This document shows, piece after piece, positions 6,639 through 53,838 of a stretch of 64,000 nt of DNA (position 1 is the stretch's first letter; every line of letters begins with the position of its first letter). The stretch is taken from assembly GCA_964343575.1 (NCBI GenBank), contig CAYFJV010000001.1, positions 534,705 to 598,704 on the forward strand, given 5' to 3'. The DNA comes from an uncultured Methanosarcinales archaeon (GTDB taxonomy: Archaea; Nanobdellota; Nanobdellia; Woesearchaeales; GW2011-AR9). A model generated the notes under the pieces. The model saw only the letters and a program-made list of their open reading frames with translations. It had not been told where the DNA came from and ran no database searches. A program made the position numbers and the translations under genes.

Positions 6639-6953
6639 TTATTCTCTACTGGAAGAATCGTCATCCACAGTGAAAAGTCGGCTATCATTGACGAGAAAAA
6701 GGTGAATTCTAGCCCCAGCATCAAGCCAACCGTGAGCGTAATTGAGGGCAGCGAAGGCTAAAACTGCGTCTTGTCTTTTCTCGAGGAAGAATTGGGCATC
6801 TTGATAGTAACTTTGGGCCATATTGAAGAAATCTTTAGCTTGTTCTAGGCGCTTTGGATCAAAGGCTTGCTCTGCCTTATCCAGAGCTTCTTTAGTGATT
6901 TTGAAGTACTGGGTGAGTTTTTCTTGGGTGATGGCGTTTTTTATTGCTTGCAT
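6639..6953 (-). CDS. DUF357-family protein
   Basis: MAQSYYQDA..F....AFAALNYAHGWLDAGARI motif. Confidence 0.88.
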   Translation of the reverse strand: MQAIKNAITQEKLTQYFKITKEALDKAEQAFDPKRLEQAKDFFNMAQSYYQDAQFFLEKRQDAVLAFAALNYAHGWLDAGARIHLFLVNDSRLFTVDDDSSSRE

Positions 6954-6994
6954 CTTGGCTTAAGAATAAGAGCCCAGTTATATATCTTCTTCAT

Positions 6995-7008
6995 AAAGGT
7001 TTAAAAAA
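6995..7008 (+). promoter_or_regulatory. Archaeal BRE/TATA promoter of the ECF sigma-factor gene
   Basis: AAAGG-TTTAAAAA, TATA starting 30 nt upstream of the ATG at 7030; same geometry as promoters of core genes in the window. Confidence 0.6.
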
Positions 7009-7029
7009 GAGTGGCAGGGAGAGAAACTG

Positions 7030-7647
7030 ATGACCCTTCCAGTTAGTGGATTGGAGCCGCCAGATAGAGATTGCGTAGGATTGGCTCTTTGTGGAAACCC
7101 CGTTGGTATTGAAGTTCTCTACACTCGTTATGCTCCTGCACTTGTTCGTTATGCAACAAGGTTTTTGAAAGACCCAGCAGAGGCAGAAGATGTTGCACAG
7201 GTTGCTTTCTCTAAACTCATGAATGAGAGAAACCTTAGGAAGTTACATGGGAGCCAAGCCTGCAATGTAAAAGCTTGGCTTTACAGAACAACAAGGAACT
7301 ATTCTTTAAACCAGATAAGGGATAGAAAACGAAGAGAAAACCTTCTAGATGGCCACCATAAAAACCTCCCAGAAGCACACCACAGCCTGCCTGGTCAAGA
7401 AGGTCCAATCTCTAGAGAAGAACTGCGTGCTCACCTTGATATTGCACTTTCAGGACTTACAGCAGACCATAGAGAAATAATAGAAGCCAGATTTTATGAA
7501 GAGCTGACTTACCGAGGGGTTGCAGAGATCCTAGAACTAAAATTAGGAACAGTCATGTCTCGTCTAAGCAGAGCAAAAGACGCGTTAAGAGAAATACTGA
7601 AAACAGAAGAACCTTACCTTAGAGAAAGTCTAGAAACTTTTTTGTAA
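7030..7647 (+). CDS. Bacterial-type ECF (group 4) sigma-70 factor
   Basis: Region 2 LYTRY..LVRYA..AEDVAQVAF..KAWLYRTTRN; region 4 LTADHREII..R..EELTY..VAEILELKLGTVMSRLSRAK. Confidence 0.92.
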   Translation: MTLPVSGLEPPDRDCVGLALCGNPVGIEVLYTRYAPALVRYATRFLKDPAEAEDVAQVAFSKLMNERNLRKLHGSQACNVKAWLYRTTRNYSLNQIRDRKRRENLLDGHHKNLPEAHHSLPGQEGPISREELRAHLDIALSGLTADHREIIEARFYEELTYRGVAEILELKLGTVMSRLSRAKDALREILKTEEPYLRESLETFL

Positions 7648-7691
7648 TCTGTATAGAAAAAATTGACAAGATAAAAAAAGTAGAATGTAAA

Positions 7692-7922
7692 TTACTCTGC
7701 CCTAGGAGCAGGTCGTTTTACAGTAATTGGAATTACGCCCTCTTTGAACTCACGAAGAGCAATTCTAATTGGGTTATACTGCAGCTTTAGAAGTTCTTTC
7801 TCACTAAGCTTAAGCAAGAAAGGTGCGCCCATAGCAAGCTGCAGAGCTCTACTTCCAATCATCCGAGCAGTTTCATACTTTGTGTAAGTGATTTCTTGAG
7901 TTTTATCAGTTTTCTTTGCCAT
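7692..7922 (-). CDS. rpoK: DNA-directed RNA polymerase subunit Rpo6 (K)
   Basis: YTKYETARMIGSRALQLAMGAP...PIRIALREF..GVIPITVKR. Confidence 0.96.
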   Translation of the reverse strand: MAKKTDKTQEITYTKYETARMIGSRALQLAMGAPFLLKLSEKELLKLQYNPIRIALREFKEGVIPITVKRPAPRAE

Positions 7923-12827: not shown

Positions 12828-13475
12828 CTAAAGGCCAAGCACGGGTCGAATCCTTTGAATGGTCCCCGTATTTCTTTCTTGACTAACCCCTAGTTCAAAA
12901 CGATTTTTTTGTTGTCCCCAACGAACTGCATCAGCAATTGTTCTGGTAAACCGATCGATCCTGCTAGAGGGAACTCTCCCAACTCCAGATTTAAGAGTAT
13001 AAGTTATTTGGATCTCTCCACCTTGAAGGAGATAGCTTACTGCGACCCCCCTTACCCTTTCATCACCAGGGTTACTTCCGATATCTAATTGTAACTCCTT
13101 CATTGAGGGAGACAAAAGGCTTGTAAGAAGCCCCGACTGCAGCCGCCTTGGGTCATGTTTTCCATTAAACTCGTATGAACCAACAATCGGGTCTTTCTCA
13201 CCAGGCCTCAGAGTAATTAACCCTCCTGAGTTCTCAACAACATAACCTAACTCTTCACCCCCATATTCAAGAGCTTCAATAAATCCATTTGGGTCTCTTC
13301 CAGCCATACTACAAGGAATTTGAGGAGTAAAACCATCTAAGAAACCGTACACTAAGACTTCTGCCAACCCAACCTTTTCATCTGGACAAAGTACTAGAAC
13401 ATCTCCTGCAGTCGCATTCCCAATTTTCGTGTGGGAATCAGTATATTCTCCTAAACTTCTTGCTAAAATTACCAT
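12828..13475 (-). CDS. Hypothetical protein
   Basis: 215-aa ORF with its own TATA-like element at about 13496-13510; no recognised motif. Confidence 0.6.
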   Translation of the reverse strand: MVILARSLGEYTDSHTKIGNATAGDVLVLCPDEKVGLAEVLVYGFLDGFTPQIPCSMAGRDPNGFIEALEYGGEELGYVVENSGGLITLRPGEKDPIVGSYEFNGKHDPRRLQSGLLTSLLSPSMKELQLDIGSNPGDERVRGVAVSYLLQGGEIQITYTLKSGVGRVPSSRIDRFTRTIADAVRWGQQKNRFELGVSQERNTGTIQRIRPVLGL

Positions 13476-30618: not shown

Positions 30619-31656
30619 TTAGTGATGTCTTTCTTGTCTTGCAGCTTCAACATTTAGAACTTTTCGATACAAAGATTCTACGCTGGGATCGTCTCGTAGC
30701 AAGCCTAAGGAGTTGACAAGACCCCTTTCTAAAACCGCTTCAACTTCTCGGTTTATTCGATCTAATTCGTAGTCCACGCCCATTGCTGCATAGGCTAAAA
30801 AGACATTTGCAAGATCGATTATGGTAAAGTTTGGCATTCCTGACCCTCCTGGATGTCTTCGCATTTGTGCAATGCTCAGTGATCTTTGGATGTCTGTCCT
30901 CATTCTATGATATGCAGGAACCCTCTCTGCAAGATGCAATGCAGTTTCAAGATGTCTTTCTGCATAACAAAGACCACCGGATCCCAAATCCTCCATAGCA
31001 ATCCTTGCTTCACCCCGTTCTAAAGAGATAAGTGGGTCCCTTTTTCCTCTTTGAAATTGTAATTTCTGAAGGCGTGATCCTAAATCATAGGCAGATTCTG
31101 GATCTCCCCCTCTTCGAAGCAGGACCATTCTTCGAATATTTGCAAAATCTAAACCGTCTTGTCTTCTCAACTCTTGGTACATTTTTGCACTTGCATTAAG
31201 GTGGCTTTCTGCTCCCCTCAAATCATCTTTTCCATCTGTTCTAAGAGTATAAAGAGAAGCTAAGTTGCTTGCCACGCTTGCTTTGCGAGATTTAACTCCC
31301 CTCTCTAACTTTTCATTGTCTGGATCAACTTCGGCTAGAAGGTCAAGAGCAAAAAAGTAAAGCTCACTTGCTCTTTCCCACTTTCCCCAATCACAAAAAG
31401 CACGTCCTTGAGCATCTATGGCTGCTGCCATTGCCAGGTTTTCCTGATCTGTTCTTTGGGGAAGTTTTCTATAGAAGCCAGCTGATCGCTCTGCTATTAA
31501 AACCGCAGGATGATAATCTCCTTGAAGACGAGCTTGCCTACTAGCAAGGATAAGCATCCAATCATACCTCACAAGGGTTGAAGTAAGGCGGATAAGATCA
31601 GGATGATGGTCAGCACATTCTCTAATTCTCTGTCTTGAGAAGAGTTTTTCAAGCAT
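30619..31656 (-). CDS. Hypothetical TPR-like helical repeat protein
   Basis: Repeated A/G-x-A..G..E.A..Y..AL helix patterns; orphan with its own TATA-like element. Confidence 0.6.
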   Translation of the reverse strand: MLEKLFSRQRIRECADHHPDLIRLTSTLVRYDWMLILASRQARLQGDYHPAVLIAERSAGFYRKLPQRTDQENLAMAAAIDAQGRAFCDWGKWERASELYFFALDLLAEVDPDNEKLERGVKSRKASVASNLASLYTLRTDGKDDLRGAESHLNASAKMYQELRRQDGLDFANIRRMVLLRRGGDPESAYDLGSRLQKLQFQRGKRDPLISLERGEARIAMEDLGSGGLCYAERHLETALHLAERVPAYHRMRTDIQRSLSIAQMRRHPGGSGMPNFTIIDLANVFLAYAAMGVDYELDRINREVEAVLERGLVNSLGLLRDDPSVESLYRKVLNVEAARQERHH

Positions 31657-32592: not shown

Positions 32593-33505
32593 GGAAGAAG
32601 TTGGGGAGATTGGCCAAGATCCCTTCAAACGCAGTACTGAGCAGCTTGTTTCTTTTGGCATTGTAAACATTGATAAACCAAAGGGACCTACAAGCCACCA
32701 GACTTCTGATTTTGTCAAAAAAATTCTTGGTGTGAAGAAGGCAGGACATAGTGGGACGCTTGATCCTGCAGTTACGGGAGTACAACCAGTTGCACTTGGC
32801 AATGCAACACGTATTACACAGTTCTTTTTGACCGCTCCGAAAGAATATGTAGGAGTTATGCATCTGCACAAAGAAGTTTCTGAAGAAAAAATTCGTTTGA
32901 TGGTTGAGGAGTTTTTGGGAAAAATTCGTCAATTGCCTCCGATAAAAAGTGCCGTAAAGCGTCAGGAAAGAACACGCGAGATCTACTCCTTTGATCTGCT
33001 TGAAATTGATGGACAAGATGTTTTGTTTAAGGTGCGTTGTCAAGCAGGAACCTACATTCGAAAACTCTGCCATGATTTTGGAAAAAAGTTAGGTGTTGGT
33101 GCGCACATGGCGCAACTTCGTCGCACTGGGGCTGGTCCGCTTAATGAAGAAGATCACCTAGTAACGCTTAATGACTTAGCGGATGCCTATCACTTTTGGA
33201 AAGAGGAAGGAAATGATTCTTTACTTCGTTATTGTATCCAACCGATAGAAGTTGGTGTACGCCACTTGAGAAAGGTTTGGATCTTTGATTCTGCAATTGA
33301 GAGTTTAAGTCATGGTCGTGATCTTGGAGCCCCTGGTGTGAGTATGCTTAATAATTTTAAGAAAGGTGAATTGGTTGCCGTGATGAGCTTGAAAGGAGAA
33401 CTTGTTGCTGTTGGGCAAGCACTGATGTCAGCAGTTGCGATTAATACTGAGCGCAAAGGGCTTGCTGTTGCGGTGAAGAAGGTGTTTTGGCAAGGAGCAC
33501 AATGA
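32564..33505 (+). CDS. cbf5: H/ACA-guided pseudouridine synthase Cbf5
   Basis: DKPKGPTSH, GHSGTLDP, KEYV, Q.PP..SAVKR and GTYIRKL motifs; PUA domain. Confidence 0.96.
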   Translation: MSTGQRFIIKEEVGEIGQDPFKRSTEQLVSFGIVNIDKPKGPTSHQTSDFVKKILGVKKAGHSGTLDPAVTGVQPVALGNATRITQFFLTAPKEYVGVMHLHKEVSEEKIRLMVEEFLGKIRQLPPIKSAVKRQERTREIYSFDLLEIDGQDVLFKVRCQAGTYIRKLCHDFGKKLGVGAHMAQLRRTGAGPLNEEDHLVTLNDLADAYHFWKEEGNDSLLRYCIQPIEVGVRHLRKVWIFDSAIESLSHGRDLGAPGVSMLNNFKKGELVAVMSLKGELVAVGQALMSAVAINTERKGLAVAVKKVFWQGAQ

Positions 33506-34023
33506 CCCAATCACAAACAAGTAGAAGACATCATTATTTTGATTTAGTTAGAGAGGAACAAGGTAGCTCTTGGTTAGAGCGACTTCTTTCTTTTCTTAGA
33601 ACTGAAGAAGCCAGGTCTGAAAGTGCTGAAAACAGGATTGTATACCTAGAAAGAGAGATTATCGTTGATATGCCCGCAATTCCTTTTATGGATCGTAGAG
33701 GAAGGGAAGCACACGAAATTTTTTTTGAGTATTTTGAAGCCCTGTTAGATGTTTGTTTTACAGAAGGGAGAAGATTTTATCTTTGCTTTAGTCCTAGAAG
33801 TTATGATAACACAGTTGCCTGTTTAATGGGCGAAGGTGTTTTGAGAGGAGAGATTTTGTTCTCAGAAGCAGAAGTTTTCTTAAGAAGATTTAGGGAGAGG
33901 GTTTCTCCTCGAGGTTATATTGTTGGAGAAGTGGAACTTAGTCCGGCAGGAAACTATATTAGAATTGATTTAGACACCTTAGCTGAGTTCTATAACCATG
34001 CCCTCCCAACAAGGGTTCACTAA
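33502..34023 (+). CDS. Hypothetical protein
   Basis: ATGA overlap with cbf5; no recognised motif; 45-bp convergent overlap with the next gene. Confidence 0.5.
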   Translation: MTQSQTSRRHHYFDLVREEQGSSWLERLLSFLRTEEARSESAENRIVYLEREIIVDMPAIPFMDRRGREAHEIFFEYFEALLDVCFTEGRRFYLCFSPRSYDNTVACLMGEGVLRGEILFSEAEVFLRRFRERVSPRGYIVGEVELSPAGNYIRIDLDTLAEFYNHALPTRVH

Positions 34024-37183: not shown

Positions 37184-37379
37184 AATTTTACTTCTCCTTT
37201 TCTTGTAAATAGATGCCTTTTTTACACACGAAGACAAATTTTTCTTCCTTTTTTCCAATAAATAGCTAATTTGCCCCCAAAATTTGGCTTTAAGATAAAT
37301 TATCTTTTCTAAAAACCATAGAAAAGTATTTATATATGTTTATTTGATGAAAAAGGCAATTAAAAATATTTTTTCTAAA

Positions 37380-38885
37380 ATGGCAGGAAATATAGGATAC
37401 CACAAAAAAATATTTACCCCAAAGAGATACTCAAGTGATGACCTTTTAGACCTTGGAGTAGATGGTTCTTATGGTTTAAATATGGCTCCAGAAGTTCTTG
37501 CTTTTCTTGACACCCCTAACACAGAGATTGCTCGTATCTATAGCGCTGCGACCGGTGCAGATTATAGAGAAACACTAGCTCTTCTGAAAACTTCAACGAA
37601 GTATCTTCGATGGTCTGGAGCAGATGAGTTTCTTGCTGTGGACAGAGATGGAGAAAAAAGGGCAGTTTTGATTGAAACTAATAGTTGTCCAGGTGGAGCA
37701 CGATCTATGCCTTCTGCTAGCATTACAAGAGTAGAAGATTCAGCATTTGCAAGAACTCTTAGCTCTGCACTTCTTCCACATGTTGTTGAAGAAGGCCCAT
37801 TGGCAGTGATGTATGATCAAAATCCAAGTGGAAATCAAAGAATGGCCCAAGTGCTCGCAACACTTAGTGGCAGAGAGGTTTATGGAGTTTATGTTCCAAC
37901 ACCGGAAGTTGCTGCAAGGCATATTGACCCACATACCCTCATGGTAGATGGAATCCCAATTGCAGGTGCACATCGTTTTGTAACACAAGATCCTTGGAGG
38001 AAATTAGCAATTCTTAATCAACGAGATGGTGTGGAAATTCCTGTTTCAAACCCAGTTATTGCCTGCCTTGGAGGAGCAAGAAACAAGGCAGTTGCAACTG
38101 CTGCTTACACTGCATTTAACCAAACTAGTAGAATCAAACTTTCCGTGCCAGTTACAACTGCCGCTGTCCCAAGAAGAGAAGCCTTTGATATGGTGAGACG
38201 AGATTTTGGAGGAGTTGCAGTTGTTAAGGATCCCTACTCTAACTCAGGCATCGGAGTTTGGACAATAACAAACAAAGAGGAACTCGAAAGGGCAGAAGCA
38301 GAAACTGATGACGGAAGATTCTACTTAGTTCAGCAACTTGTTGGAAGTGAAGAAGTCACTTCTAATGGAAGTATCCCCCAGCTCCACCATTCTGGTTGTA
38401 TTGTTGATGGAGAGAGCTTTGCTACAGACTATAGGGTTATTGTAGTTAGCCACCCAACAGAAGGATTTAGACTCGCCGGACTTTACTCCCGGAGAGGAAG
38501 AGCCCCACTTAACCAACTTGGTAGAAGGGAAGTAGACTCATGGGATGTTCTAGGAACCAACCTCTCAGTACTTGAGAGAGTATTAGCAGATGGGGAAAAG
38601 GTTTGGAAGACAGAAGCAGATAGAAGAATCATACCAACTGCAGAAGACTATGCATCAATGAATATAACAAGAGACGACCTTGCTAAAATGTATGTAACTG
38701 CTGTTGCAGCTACAGTTGCAATAGACAGAGTTGCTCAAAATCTCGTAAGAAAGGATGGTAGTTTTGATAGAGAATTATTTTTAAGATTAAATGGAGGAGA
38801 ACAAAGACTTTTGGAAGAGATTATATTTCCAAGGGGAGCGTCTCTTCACGCACAGCAACGCGAAGCAGTGGCTGCCCTTGGTTAA
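37380..38885 (+). CDS. Uncharacterised ATP-grasp / glutathione-synthetase-like ligase
   Basis: D(EF)...VLIETNSCPGG (ExN metal ligands), RNK, VVKDPYSNSGIGV, YLVQQ and DYR motifs; start uncertain. Confidence 0.7.
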   Translation: MAGNIGYHKKIFTPKRYSSDDLLDLGVDGSYGLNMAPEVLAFLDTPNTEIARIYSAATGADYRETLALLKTSTKYLRWSGADEFLAVDRDGEKRAVLIETNSCPGGARSMPSASITRVEDSAFARTLSSALLPHVVEEGPLAVMYDQNPSGNQRMAQVLATLSGREVYGVYVPTPEVAARHIDPHTLMVDGIPIAGAHRFVTQDPWRKLAILNQRDGVEIPVSNPVIACLGGARNKAVATAAYTAFNQTSRIKLSVPVTTAAVPRREAFDMVRRDFGGVAVVKDPYSNSGIGVWTITNKEELERAEAETDDGRFYLVQQLVGSEEVTSNGSIPQLHHSGCIVDGESFATDYRVIVVSHPTEGFRLAGLYSRRGRAPLNQLGRREVDSWDVLGTNLSVLERVLADGEKVWKTEADRRIIPTAEDYASMNITRDDLAKMYVTAVAATVAIDRVAQNLVRKDGSFDRELFLRLNGGEQRLLEEIIFPRGASLHAQQREAVAALG

Positions 38886-39849
38886 AGAAGGCACCCTCAT
38901 AAAGGTAGAGCACTTTCCCTTTTACAGTACTTAAAATCTTCCCGCCACAGATCTCTTCTCCAAAAATATTTCTTAGTTCTGCAACAGGGGTTCCAACTTC
39001 AATCTCTTCACCAACAGTTACAAGAAACTTAACAACACCGCTCTTAGGCATTAAAGGTTTTAGAACAGCACTACCAATAAAATTTTTTCTCGAGGGAAGA
39101 GCAACATTTCTTCTTATAAGGCCTAAAGAAGCTATCACATTTTTTACTCCGCTTAACCCAGAAGCAACTTTTCTGTTATCTACCACTAATCGGGAACCAA
39201 GCTCAACTGTGAAAGAAGGAATCTTTTTGAAATAAACTAAAGAGCCCACTAGAGTGCTAGCATACCTCATTTTTTTCCCGGGAGTTTGTTCGTTGTAGAG
39301 GACAGGGAACCCAAATGTGTTTGCGTGATGAAAGCTTTCTCGACAAACATCCCGGTCTTCTTCCCGATGAGCTTTTCTTACATAGATAAAAGAATCAGAA
39401 CAAATTTTTGAACAATGCAAATCAATGTGAAAACTGGTATGCCTGCTTAGCTCTGAAACAAAATTTTCTGTTATTTGTTCTATCTCTTTTTTCTTTTCAT
39501 GTTCTTTTCCCTCTGGGAAAAAACCATTTATATCATAATCAAATATTGAAAAAGTTCTCTTGGCCCGCAAAGCCCCCAAGGGATTCAAGCTAGGGAACAA
39601 GATCACTGTTCCCTCCAAATGCTGAAGAAAGTCAGTTGTTCTTGCTTCCTTTATCAAATCAAGAATAACAAGAGAGCCAATTTGCTCGTCCCCATGCATA
39701 TTTGCCCCAACTGATATGGTCTTTCCTTCTTTTGCTCCGCCAAGGATGACTACTGGAATTCTCTCACAGACCCCTGTTGCATAGGTGAACAGATCAAAGA
39801 AACCCTGAGAAATTTCTCCCCCTTTAACATCTAACCCAAAAACTTTCAT
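38821..39849 (-). CDS. M14-family succinylglutamate desuccinylase/aspartoacylase-like zinc carboxypeptidase
   Basis: HGDE (Zn), NP.G....R, IDLH and TVELG motifs; C-terminal biotinyl-like domain. Confidence 0.88.
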   Translation of the reverse strand: MKVFGLDVKGGEISQGFFDLFTYATGVCERIPVVILGGAKEGKTISVGANMHGDEQIGSLVILDLIKEARTTDFLQHLEGTVILFPSLNPLGALRAKRTFSIFDYDINGFFPEGKEHEKKKEIEQITENFVSELSRHTSFHIDLHCSKICSDSFIYVRKAHREEDRDVCRESFHHANTFGFPVLYNEQTPGKKMRYASTLVGSLVYFKKIPSFTVELGSRLVVDNRKVASGLSGVKNVIASLGLIRRNVALPSRKNFIGSAVLKPLMPKSGVVKFLVTVGEEIEVGTPVAELRNIFGEEICGGKILSTVKGKVLYLYEGAFFNQGQPLLRVAVREETLPLEI

Positions 39850-39996
39850 GAATTTTGCTTAAGATAAGAAATATATATATTTTTTTGTCTACAATTGCTA
39901 AAGGAGAAAAATTCTTTCCAAGGGAATGATAAAGGTTTAAAAAAACATAACCGAATTGAATAAAAGTATTAGAAATTACCCAAGATACCATTGAAA

Positions 39997-41301
39997 ATGT
40001 CGCTGATTCTTCCAACACACCCAAACTTTGAAAATTATGTTAGAGAACACGATGCAGTCTTAGATATGTTAGGCACGAGAGTTGCAAAAATTCCGCTTTC
40101 CCCTTTCTTTTATCAGAGAACACTTGTAGATGAGACTAGGCCGACAGTAGAAGCATACTCAAGGCTTCTTGAACATATTGCAGGAGATTATGGTACTTTT
40201 AGAGAACACCTTGGCTACGAGCCTGAATTGGACCAATTACTTGCTGGAGCTCCAAGCTATCCCCACAACGTTCCAATTGGAAGAATAGATCTTTTCTTAA
40301 CGGAAGATGGTCCAAGGATCGTTGAGGTGAACACAGAATCTGCAGGAGGTATCGAAGAAAATTCTTACCTTGAAGAACTTTTCTTGAGACACTTCCCTGA
40401 AGCAGTTTCAGGATACAAGGCCCACGCAAGATTAAGTCAAGGAATTAACGCCTTAGTGAGTTCTTACCAAGAGCAAAAAAGAGCAAAAGGCAGAGAAGGA
40501 GAGATTGTTGAAAAACCAAGAATTGTGCTCTTCAAAGCTGCAAAAGAGATCAAAAGAATTAGAGGAGAAGTAGAAGTTTTTAGAATTGCAGCTCAACAAT
40601 TAGGCTATGATTGTGAAATTCTTCCTCTTGAATCAGCTACTTTTAGAGATGGCCACCTCTATGCTCAAGGAAGAGTTGTTGATCTGGTTTATAGGAGATT
40701 TATTCTAGATAGGCTTCCGGAAGAGCATCCAGAAGGGTTTGATTTTGCTCGAAGGCTAAACGATAGTTCCGTTGCGCTTGTAAACCCAGTTGCTTCTAAA
40801 AGAGTAAGCTCTAAAAGAGTTCAAGTTCTTCTTTCCGACCCAGCATATGAACGCCTTTTCCCACCAAGACTTCTACAAGACTTAAAAAGGGTAAGGAAAA
40901 ATATTCCACGCACGAGAGACCTTTCAAGACCAGACTCGACAGAGAGGCTTTTAAGGGAGATGTTAAAAGATAGGGAAAGGTTAGTGATAAAGGCAGCAAA
41001 TTCATTTGCTAGTAAAGCGGTTTTCATTGGGAGTGACATAAGTCCCGAAGAGTGGGAAAGAGTGGCAAAAGAAGCAGTCGGAGCAGATTTTATACTTCAG
41101 GAGAGGATAAATTTACCAAGAGTTCAAGTTGCTGTTCTTGAAGAGGGATCTAGACTAGAGCAAGAGATGATCTTCAATGTTTGTCCTTACATGTTCAGAG
41201 GAGAGTTTGGAGGATTCTATGTAAGAGCTTCCGATGATAACCTAACTTCTTTCAAAGAGGGTTCTTTAGCCACAGTTCTTCCTTGTTTTGAGAGGTTATA
41301 G
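39997..41301 (+). CDS. Circularly permuted ATP-grasp ligase (glutathionylspermidine synthase-like)
   Basis: RIDLF...IVEVNTESAGG, DLVYRR, VNP...SSK, LVIKAA..FASKAVFIG and ILQERI motifs. Confidence 0.82.
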   Translation: MSLILPTHPNFENYVREHDAVLDMLGTRVAKIPLSPFFYQRTLVDETRPTVEAYSRLLEHIAGDYGTFREHLGYEPELDQLLAGAPSYPHNVPIGRIDLFLTEDGPRIVEVNTESAGGIEENSYLEELFLRHFPEAVSGYKAHARLSQGINALVSSYQEQKRAKGREGEIVEKPRIVLFKAAKEIKRIRGEVEVFRIAAQQLGYDCEILPLESATFRDGHLYAQGRVVDLVYRRFILDRLPEEHPEGFDFARRLNDSSVALVNPVASKRVSSKRVQVLLSDPAYERLFPPRLLQDLKRVRKNIPRTRDLSRPDSTERLLREMLKDRERLVIKAANSFASKAVFIGSDISPEEWERVAKEAVGADFILQERINLPRVQVAVLEEGSRLEQEMIFNVCPYMFRGEFGGFYVRASDDNLTSFKEGSLATVLPCFERL

Positions 41302-52689: not shown

Positions 52690-53838
52690 TTACAAAGAAA
52701 CTCCACAAGTATCATAGAGAGACTCTATTTCTAGAGCAGACAGTTCTCCGCCAGAGATGATGGCAGAAGCATATCTTTGGTTGCCAACATACTCCTTGGG
52801 GTTTTTTCCTTCACAAGCATCCTCTAACCAATCCCCAGCAGTATCAAAATTTTCTGGACAAGGCATTGGGTTATACCACTCCAAAGCTTTTCTATCATCA
52901 AGATAAAGGGTGTTGTGTCTGATAATGTTAATGAGCCCTAGGTACTCTAAAGCACTTATAGTGGTTTCTTCAATAGTGTCAGGATTTAACTCATAGCGAT
53001 CCCAGTGCTTCTCTGCTTTCCTTACTTTGTGAGGGTTTACTTCTTCTTCCCAAAAATTGTCAACTAAATTGAGAAGGTGTTGGTTTGCTTCGGTTTGCTC
53101 TGTTCTTAACTCTCCTTTTCTTTCCTTTGTTGTTCCCTCTTGATTGTATTCAGCAATACGCTCTTGAGTCTCTTCATAGAATTTCTTGACACCAAAAATC
53201 TCTCCAGATTTGAGTTTTATTTTTGGGAGTAGAACATCCAAGTCTAGGTAAACTGCATGTTCTTGAGTTTCATAAGCTGCAAGGGTTCGAGCATGGTTTC
53301 TAAAATAGCGCATTTCTTCTAGGGGTCCCGTATGTAGGGTTGTGACTCTTCTTGCTGTCCTTCGATCACTCTCAAACTCTCCGGGAAACTTTACAGCAGT
53401 AAGAATATTCTCTAAAGCAGTAACGGGAATCACTTGAAAGGTTCCACAAGCGCCAACCAATGAGCAGACGTGGCTGTTGTATCTTGATTCTTTATCTATC
53501 TGAGCAGCAAGTACAAAAGGATCTAGCAAAGTTCTTGGCTTTCCTTCTTCATCAAAATTTACCGCTTCATGGTATCTTCTAATATCTTCTTCATGAGCTG
53601 CAATTCTTTGATGTGCGGAGCTTCTTAGTATTGGAGATTCATCAAGGCAATCTTGAAGTGTTCTTTTCTTAACAGCAAATCTATCAAATTCTCCCCCTGC
53701 ACCATCTGCCCCCCAAAAAGTAGTTTGCAGCACTCTCTCTATAGCTGTATCTTTTATCACCGAAGGACAGGTTGATACCGTAGCTAATGCGCCCACAAGG
53801 GTTCCAATTAAGACGTATCGGAGAGAGGTTGCTTCCAT
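52690..53838 (-). CDS. Exported protein with lytic transglycosylase (SLT, GH23-like) motifs
   Basis: N-terminal hydrophobic signal; LDPFVLAAQIDKESRYN...S.VGACGTFQVIPVTA (motifs I/II); distal ALEWYN and NQRYASAI (motifs III/IV-like). Confidence 0.72.
   Translation of the reverse strand: MEATSLRYVLIGTLVGALATVSTCPSVIKDTAIERVLQTTFWGADGAGGEFDRFAVKKRTLQDCLDESPILRSSAHQRIAAHEEDIRRYHEAVNFDEEGKPRTLLDPFVLAAQIDKESRYNSHVCSLVGACGTFQVIPVTALENILTAVKFPGEFESDRRTARRVTTLHTGPLEEMRYFRNHARTLAAYETQEHAVYLDLDVLLPKIKLKSGEIFGVKKFYEETQERIAEYNQEGTTKERKGELRTEQTEANQHLLNLVDNFWEEEVNPHKVRKAEKHWDRYELNPDTIEETTISALEYLGLINIIRHNTLYLDDRKALEWYNPMPCPENFDTAGDWLEDACEGKNPKEYVGNQRYASAIISGGELSALEIESLYDTCGVSL

Follow-up and report, generated by a model that had tools for sequence, protein, structure and literature searches.

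Why does an archaeon that has no bacterial RNA polymerase (RNAP) carry an intact bacterial-type sigma factor gene, and on which polymerase, if any, could its product act? This question is raised by positions 7030-7647 of the DNA analyzed here, a stretch of 64,000 nucleotides (the window) from an archaeal genome. The archaeal enzyme is not known to work with sigma factors. Complete sigma factors in archaea were reportedly described by Rinke et al. as early as 2013. Sigma-70 genes in DPANN archaea, mostly in Woesearchaeota, were later documented by Castelle et al. (2021; PMC8204110), who in the passages used here excluded mis-binning and found no anti-sigma genes. According to the same passages the protein family concerned, fam00359, holds 221 proteins and occurs in 39% of 196 Woesearchaeota genomes, in 38% of 90 Pacearchaeota genomes and in 0–11% of non-DPANN archaeal groups; its signalP value is 0, and a role in transcription regulation was raised for these sigmas (PMC8204110). 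A first reading of the locus, made from the letters alone (the sequence-only reading), implied that a sigma gene in an archaeon is a surprise, but such DPANN genes were already in print, and the gene at 7030-7647 is one more example of a known oddity. Our literature search, which reached few subscription papers, returned no functional study of DPANN sigmas. The gene is a clean test object for asking what makes at least a third of these archaea retain bacterial sigmas when they have no bacterial polymerase, as it is small and intact and comes with a bacterial sister clade and a candidate promoter motif.

An intact ECF sigma gene in an archaeal genome

The reading frame runs from ATG to TAA without internal stops, and its 205-residue product (P0001) matched Pfam Sigma70_r2 over residues 30-102 (E 8.4e-16) and Sigma70_r4 over residues 139-188 (E 9.7e-13), with r4_2 also matched. 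Against TIGR02937 the protein scored 105.9 bits (cut-off 42.9). With the frame intact and both Pfam matches above their cut-offs, the claim of complete regions 2 and 4 without a frameshift was borne out. An AlphaFold2 model of P0001 from a 65-row alignment (pLDDT 87.7) showed two helical domains and a low-confidence linker; a Foldseek search with this model gave ECF sigmas as top matches, and a PDB sequence search returned AlgU, SigL, SigH and sigmaE. By sequence, P0001 is a member of the ECF (group 4) sigma-70 family, with sigma2 and sigma4 as its only domains, a linker between them and a length of about 200 residues. Inspection revealed no signal peptide or membrane segment in P0001.

The genome (1.21 Mb in six contigs, 95% complete, 0.6% contaminated) has an archaeal gene set, and the window lies within a 665-kb contig (C1:534705-598704). 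Its size, its gene set and a sigma frequency that agrees with the published one suggest a DPANN archaeon, presumably Woesearchaeota-like. When searched with the bacterial rpoB model TIGR02013, this 95% complete genome yielded only the split archaeal RpoB, below cut-off. The zf-HC2 family, the sole anti-sigma family searched, had no match anywhere in the genome, and with DUF357 and rpoK as flanking genes the earlier statement that no anti-sigma gene is adjacent stands.

Table 1. Features at and around the sigma gene (positions in the window).
Feature	Positions	Strand	Evidence
DUF357 gene, to the left of the insertion site	6639..6953	-	Pfam, loci of relatives
Insert of 738 bp separating rpoK and DUF357	6954..7691	.	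comparison with same-genus genome G001
TATA-like element (−31) serving DUF357, back-to-back with the sigma promoter	6977..6991	-	promoter matrix
Promoter elements of the sigma gene: A-rich BRE-like element at 6992-6999, TATA box at 7000-7007	6992..7007	+	sequence, promoter matrix
Shine-Dalgarno-like GGAG at −12; the peak in the genome is at −14 to −11	7018..7021	+	sequence, genome motif profile
ECF-type sigma-70 gene, 205 aa (sigma2 ~30-102, linker, sigma4 ~139-188)	7030..7647	+	Pfam, TIGRFAM, AlphaFold2, Foldseek
rpoK (Rpo6, RpoK/Rpb6) on the right flank, located downstream of rrp41-rrp42 and convergent with the sigma gene	7692..7922	-	Pfam, loci of relatives

The promoter and composition of the gene are archaeal

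The TATA box of the sigma gene, TTTAAAAA, starts at −30, as the sequence-only reading had it, and this falls within the genome's own peak for TATA-like hexamers (−31 to −28 upstream of 809 ATG-start ORFs). A matrix derived from 233 other promoters ranked the site at the 66th percentile of those same 233, and 1 in 10,000 random 20-mers attained its score. No GGAAY motif, the mark of an autoregulatory ECF-type promoter, was found in the upstream region, which carries TATA/BRE. Possibly, the sigma insert made a separate DUF357 promoter necessary.

The composition of the gene pointed in the same direction, with a GC3 of 0.30 (genome mean 0.325), a CAI that ranks at the 24th percentile among 1167 ORFs from a crude call and a 4-mer likelihood at the 14th percentile of equal windows. 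In favor of an assembly chimera or contamination, the sigma gene is a singleton, but its GC3 and 4-mers are host-like, contig C1 contains no Ns, the archaeal promoter is correctly spaced, the flanks are collinear with those of relatives, no bacterial DNA adjoins the gene and no near-identical bacterial protein exists among the matches; we regard this explanation as very improbable. The view of the gene as domesticated rather than contaminating is supported by GC3 and CAI, by the archaeal promoter, by a best match of 42% over most of its length and by conserved archaeal gene order on both sides.

The gene occupies a permissive site

As described earlier, archaeal genes lie on both sides, namely a TrmB-like gene and the DUF357 gene, both on the minus strand, and RpoK/Rpb6, also on the minus strand, with the RNase PH exosome subunits. 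DUF357 directly follows rpoK in most relatives. We surveyed 40 of 56 DUF357 loci from relatives: rpoK was present in 35, at a distance of at most 200 bp in 24 and farther away in 11, and a sigma match was found in none of the 40. In the same-genus genome G001 the site is empty, with 17 bp from the rpoK stop to the DUF357 start. Co-oriented ORFs unrelated to sigma were found in 9 of the 11 wider gaps (>200 bp; 35 relatives). Since the G001 site is empty and the gaps of relatives hold unrelated ORFs, the sigma gene is an insert specific to its lineage, in a site that is permissive; being beside rpoK therefore carries no functional signal. The sequence-only reading was right that the gene is next to rpoK, with the two convergent, on opposite strands and not co-transcribed, but a functional link between them was rejected, as the surveyed relatives have no sigma match there.

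Two further origins of the insert were considered and rejected. A mobile element with terminal repeats found no support, as there is no terminal repeat beyond A-runs of 7 bp. A viral origin was discarded because the flanks are housekeeping genes, with no virus or provirus context, and because phage and viral matches are only 26–39% identical.

Judged by eye, the singletons at this hotspot in relatives (L042, L045, L050, L053, L056, L057, L070, L074, L075) include a toxin-antitoxin-like pair and an ATPase/kinase-like domain; a further insert resembles a repeat protein, and three others look like membrane proteins of a methyltransferase-like kind. Elsewhere in the window, arginine-rich orphan ORFs without a Pfam match are found at 1886-2659, 12828-13475, 30619-31656 and 33487-34023; they sit singly between housekeeping genes, as the sigma gene does (R/(R+K) at the 91st percentile). 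At 37344-41301 there are two ORFs of 513 and 436 aa that by eye are ATP-grasp-ligase-like, neither of them with a Pfam match. Between them lies a succinylglutamate desuccinylase-like peptidase, and a C39-like peptidase comes next; the group is possibly a small peptide-modification cluster.

Nearest relatives and a likely bacterial donor clade

Among the 119 other proteins listed, those closest to P0001 are 33–42% identical, and a search of 1.84 billion representatives without a word index gave nothing closer except 48% on a 130-aa fragment. The sequence-only reading had named near-identity to a co-occurring bacterium as evidence that would count against it; the best bacterial match, at 42%, is not near-identical. 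The orthologue search in DPANN genomes that it proposed returned no close orthologue in 400 other genomes of the order (best 33%), and neither of the two same-genus genomes that were searched (89% and 77% complete) has the gene.

The relatives that stand out form a donor-type clade of bacterial ECFs (P0002-P0120, L139-L143). A downstream zf-HC2 ORF was present in 4/4 of its loci tested, three of them above cut-off, and GGAAY was read by eye in each of the four upstream regions examined; the one locus scanned has a urocanase gene upstream and an S41 peptidase gene downstream. One member is labelled Deltaproteobacteria (TVQ86529.1), and the donor taxon rests on this single label. On a profile of the clade built without it, P0001 scored 158.7 bits, as compared to 96.4 for the next archaeal ECF and 260–312 for clade members, and it shares 15 of 31 clade-signature columns (median, 4). 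In the −35 recognition helix (residues 173-182) it hardly differs from the clade. A first tree placed P0001 beside the donor clade with an SH-aLRT of 99; in a wider tree, which needed 11 label changes, the support was 82.

The bacterial rows of the trees were picked by similarity to P0001, the incomplete row L128 was dropped and match sets were thinned. AU tests did not reject a single clade of the 37 archaeal rows (p 0.40; p 0.53, with the constrained tree scoring higher). Because of these test results and the row selection, separate acquisitions are shown only at the level of classes (RpoD-like, FliA-like, ECF), and multiple origins of the archaeal ECFs, with a single clade unrejected, are not demonstrable. 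For P0001 itself, the profile and tree comparisons make an independent capture from the bacterial ECF clade likely.

Sigma genes turn over, with signs of constraint in other archaeal ECF pairs

Of 401 genomes in the order, 135 passed the PF04542 cut-off, as did 128 of 301 in a sample of the phylum, which agrees with the published frequency in Woesearchaeota. These tallies include seven and one genomes flagged unpublished, respectively, and the remaining claims do not rely on them. The sigma matches of the order span RpoD-like, FliA-like and ECF proteins, and several genomes carry tandem arrays of two or three sigma genes (L115 G213:C6; L008 G018:C48; G063:C3; G100:C31).

The genome studied here has a second sigma gene, FliA/WhiG-like (307 aa, C1:120732-121655). 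Its TATA box lies near −30, and two genes upstream of it a Ser/Thr kinase domain is encoded. There is also an RpoD-like remnant (C1 ~197610-197790), of which region 4.2 alone is left, without an in-frame ATG, between an SOD gene and a membrane gene. At this site G001 has an intact RpoD-like gene of 401 aa, and sigma genes therefore turn over within one genus. Taken together, we are nearly certain that the gene at 7030-7647 was captured, is fully ameliorated and stands under an archaeal promoter without an anti-sigma, as one of many sigmas that these DPANN archaea have gained and lost singly.

Selection was assessed on other archaeal ECF genes. Three unsaturated syntenic pairs gave dN/dS values of 0.31, 0.18 and 0.28; the value for one very close pair, with few changes to count, was 0.65, and another two pairs had reached saturation. 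Syntenic ECF pairs of genus g44 are 44–45% identical and their neighbors 78–84%, so that sigma divergence is about twice that of the neighbors. A syntenic ECF gene is kept in five g44 genomes (L122, L125, L126, L127, L133) at 27–46% identity, next to a neighbor at 70–81%, a pattern of fast evolution with retention.

The gene might have landed singly in a permissive site and persist there, nearly neutral, until it is deleted. Its absence from the two same-genus genomes, the insertion hotspot (gaps >200 bp in 11/35 relatives), the decay of the RpoD-like gene and a glutamate-to-valine change at position 58 of P0001 (E58V, see below) would all fit such a passenger. Against it, frame and motifs are intact in a gene that is completely ameliorated and whose product differs by ~60% from the nearest proteins, the dN/dS of the three unsaturated pairs stays at 0.18–0.31, and 26/35 high-quality genomes of the family retain at least one sigma. 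We consider a passenger unlikely.

Conserved residues and the polymerase they fit

To these results we add a comparison with 36 other archaeal ECFs from 35 genomes (median pairwise identity 22%). Against a median column conservation of 36%, the best-kept positions include W83 (34/36), R181 (33/36), D54 (33/36; acidic in 36/36), N90 (32/36), R178 (30/36) and Q57 (29/36), in a set that was chosen by sigma HMMs and so favors motif-keeping proteins, whose archaeal status was not verified locus by locus and in which some of the residues may be structural. P0001 retains W83, N90, N94, M176, S177, R181, E53, D54 and Q57. Position 58 we take to be a core-contact position equivalent to sigma70 E407; it is V in P0001, E in 36/36 members of the donor clade and acidic in 28/36 other archaeal ECFs.

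In the parts of the structural papers used here, the −10 pocket and melting residues of M. tuberculosis sigmaH are W81, I85, N88 and N92, and its −35 residues M181, S182 and R186 (PMC6411747; PMC6648896). W83, N90 and R181 correspond to W81 (−10 pocket), N88 (melting) and R186 (−35), respectively (PMC6411747). The position of I85 is T87 in P0001, as opposed to the conserved I/V of the −10 pocket. An acidic DAED motif in region 2.2 is described as binding basic residues of beta-prime (PMC8999054, in part); the corresponding motif of P0001 is EAED at 51-54, with Q57.

The surroundings of the genes were compared between archaeal and bacterial-like loci. A TATA box was found at 26/37 archaeal ECF loci and at 0/38 bacterial-like loci, the latter mostly GC-rich and with several starts allowed, and an HxxxCxxC (anti-sigma-like) ORF lies downstream at 0/36 archaeal and 13/36 bacterial-like loci.

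Could the protein serve the archaeal polymerase? As an accessory factor it would bind the clamp coiled coil through sigma2 or compete with TFE and Spt4/5. The clamp coiled coil is homologous to that of bacterial beta-prime (E ~1e-13), and the sigma2.2 motif is conserved, which would suit such a factor. The coiled coil is, however, near-invariant in 28/28 genomes aligned, with and without sigma genes, it closely matches other archaeal polymerases, and its net charge is −6 or −7; as the sigma motif is acidic too, the archaeal clamp makes a poor partner for it. Nor is the place beside rpoK conserved, with the sigma match missing from all 40 surveyed loci. A complex prediction of P0001 sigma2 (8-112) with the organism's own RpoA' (5-320) scored 0.19 against a mark of 0.32 and carries no weight here. 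We judge an accessory role at the archaeal RNAP quite improbable.

Another reading is a repurposed DNA-binding regulator in the archaeon's own cytoplasm. The sigma4 helix-turn-helix would bind GGAAY-like sites near TATA/BRE and repress or activate TBP/TFB-dependent transcription. The own cytoplasm is the default location of the protein because its gene has an archaeal promoter and no export signal, the recognition helix is nearly that of the donor clade, and the regulatory role raised by Castelle et al. (PMC8204110, in part) would agree with it. On the other side, the core-binding and melting residues of sigma2 are kept as well as those of sigma4, and a role of the helix-turn-helix alone needs none of them. 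Free ECF sigmas bind duplex DNA weakly in the absence of core, which also counts against such a regulator. GGAAC and related motifs were not enriched upstream of genes (107 vs 116 shuffled), a result that a small regulon would escape. On balance, regulation within the archaeal cell appears rather unlikely.

A bacterial polymerase in a partner cell as the possible target

Because core-binding and melting residues are kept while the genome is without a bacterial RNAP, we tentatively propose, and give somewhat less than an even chance, that the target of the sigma protein is bacterial core RNAP inside a partner or prey cell to which the archaeon is attached. The simplest reading of the conservation pattern would be that selection favors function with a core enzyme of bacterial type, present only in another cell. 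Also counted for this proposal are the dN/dS values of 0.18–0.31 in the syntenic pairs, the 0/36 archaeal loci with an anti-sigma-like ORF downstream, and ECF-type promoter motifs, which were not enriched upstream of 1164 ORFs (e.g. 14 observed, 25.9 shuffled) but were read in the four donor-clade upstream regions. Three functions had been put forward in the sequence-only reading; an effector on bacterial RNAP seems to fit the pattern best and binding of the archaeal clamp worst.

The protein would be made in the archaeon and would act inside the bacterium, like sigmas encoded by phages. In that cell the beta-prime clamp helices of the bacterial core would be the docking site of sigma2, and sigma4 would read a GGAAY-type −35 element; without an anti-sigma the factor would be permanently active. 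The outcome would be that the ECF regulon of the partner is switched on, or that its own sigmas are outcompeted for core enzyme.

Some Woesearchaeota may be episymbionts of bacteria (PMC8204110, in part), phage sigmas are described as activating host gene networks (bioRxiv 2021.11.12.468384, in part) and nanotubes between DPANN cells and hosts as wide enough for unfolded protein (PMC11329633, in part), all of which would favor an effector. So would three M23 peptidase and two SLT-like genes in the genome, although the two M23 proteins that were read (~162 aa) have no obvious signal peptide. Further points speak against it: P0001 appears to have no export signal and no known delivery route into a bacterium, and it has V58 and T87 at otherwise conserved positions. 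In the parts of the literature consulted, every cultivated DPANN host is archaeal (PMC11291902) and co-sorting found no cell-cell associations of Woesearchaeota (PMC11606122).

As to their location, the three M23 genes are short and lie at C1 303473-303763 and 326261-327086, two of them in tandem. One SLT-like protein is encoded in the window (52690-53838, minus strand; 382 aa), matches SLT (lytic transglycosylase) weakly and begins with a hydrophobic segment near its N terminus; the second (C2 ~241283-243040; 585 aa) has a likely signal peptide.

If the protein is an effector on bacterial RNAP, it would be evidence of archaeal parasitism on bacteria and a way to predict the hosts of an uncultured group. 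It is conceivable, although we incline to doubt it, that captured anti-sigma-free sigmas of the RpoD-like, FliA-like and ECF classes are in general cross-domain effectors of Woesearchaeota-type parasites or predators of bacteria, so that each donor clade would point to a bacterial host, current or former; for P0001 this would probably be a deltaproteobacterial or myxococcal lineage.

Comparison with known systems

P0001 shares the sigma2-linker-sigma4 architecture and the −10/−35 contact residues with ECF sigmas of solved structure, namely P. aeruginosa AlgU (8z6g, 6in7), M. tuberculosis SigL (6dv9) and SigH (5zx2) and E. coli sigmaE (1or7, 6jbq). These work with a cognate core and an anti-sigma in the same cell, whereas the genome of P0001 has no bacterial core. 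A canonical bacterial ECF sigma/anti-sigma system has an adjacent anti-sigma, a bacterial core in the same genome and an autoregulatory ECF promoter; the gene at 7030-7647 has none of the three. Likewise, P0001 differs from its donor clade in being without anti-sigma, GGAAY promoter and bacterial RNAP, in having E58V and four inserted residues around the specificity loop, and in scoring well below true members.

Phage sigmas (Schwartz et al., bioRxiv 2021.11.12.468384, in part; ECF-like ones in crAss-like and Microcystis phages) offer a parallel, since there too the carrier genome has no matching core. Unlike them, the gene at 7030-7647 has no viral context and only the distant phage and viral matches given above, and a phage expresses its sigma inside the host, whereas the archaeon would have to deliver protein or mRNA. 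There is a further likeness to the DPANN sigmas of fam00359, which are also sigma-70 ORFs among archaeal genes, without anti-sigma and without signal peptide. The passages of that study used here (PMC8204110) are silent on sigma class, donor, promoter, selection and the conservation of residues; the copy at 7030-7647 is ECF-type, and for it both the exact empty site and a candidate donor clade can be named.
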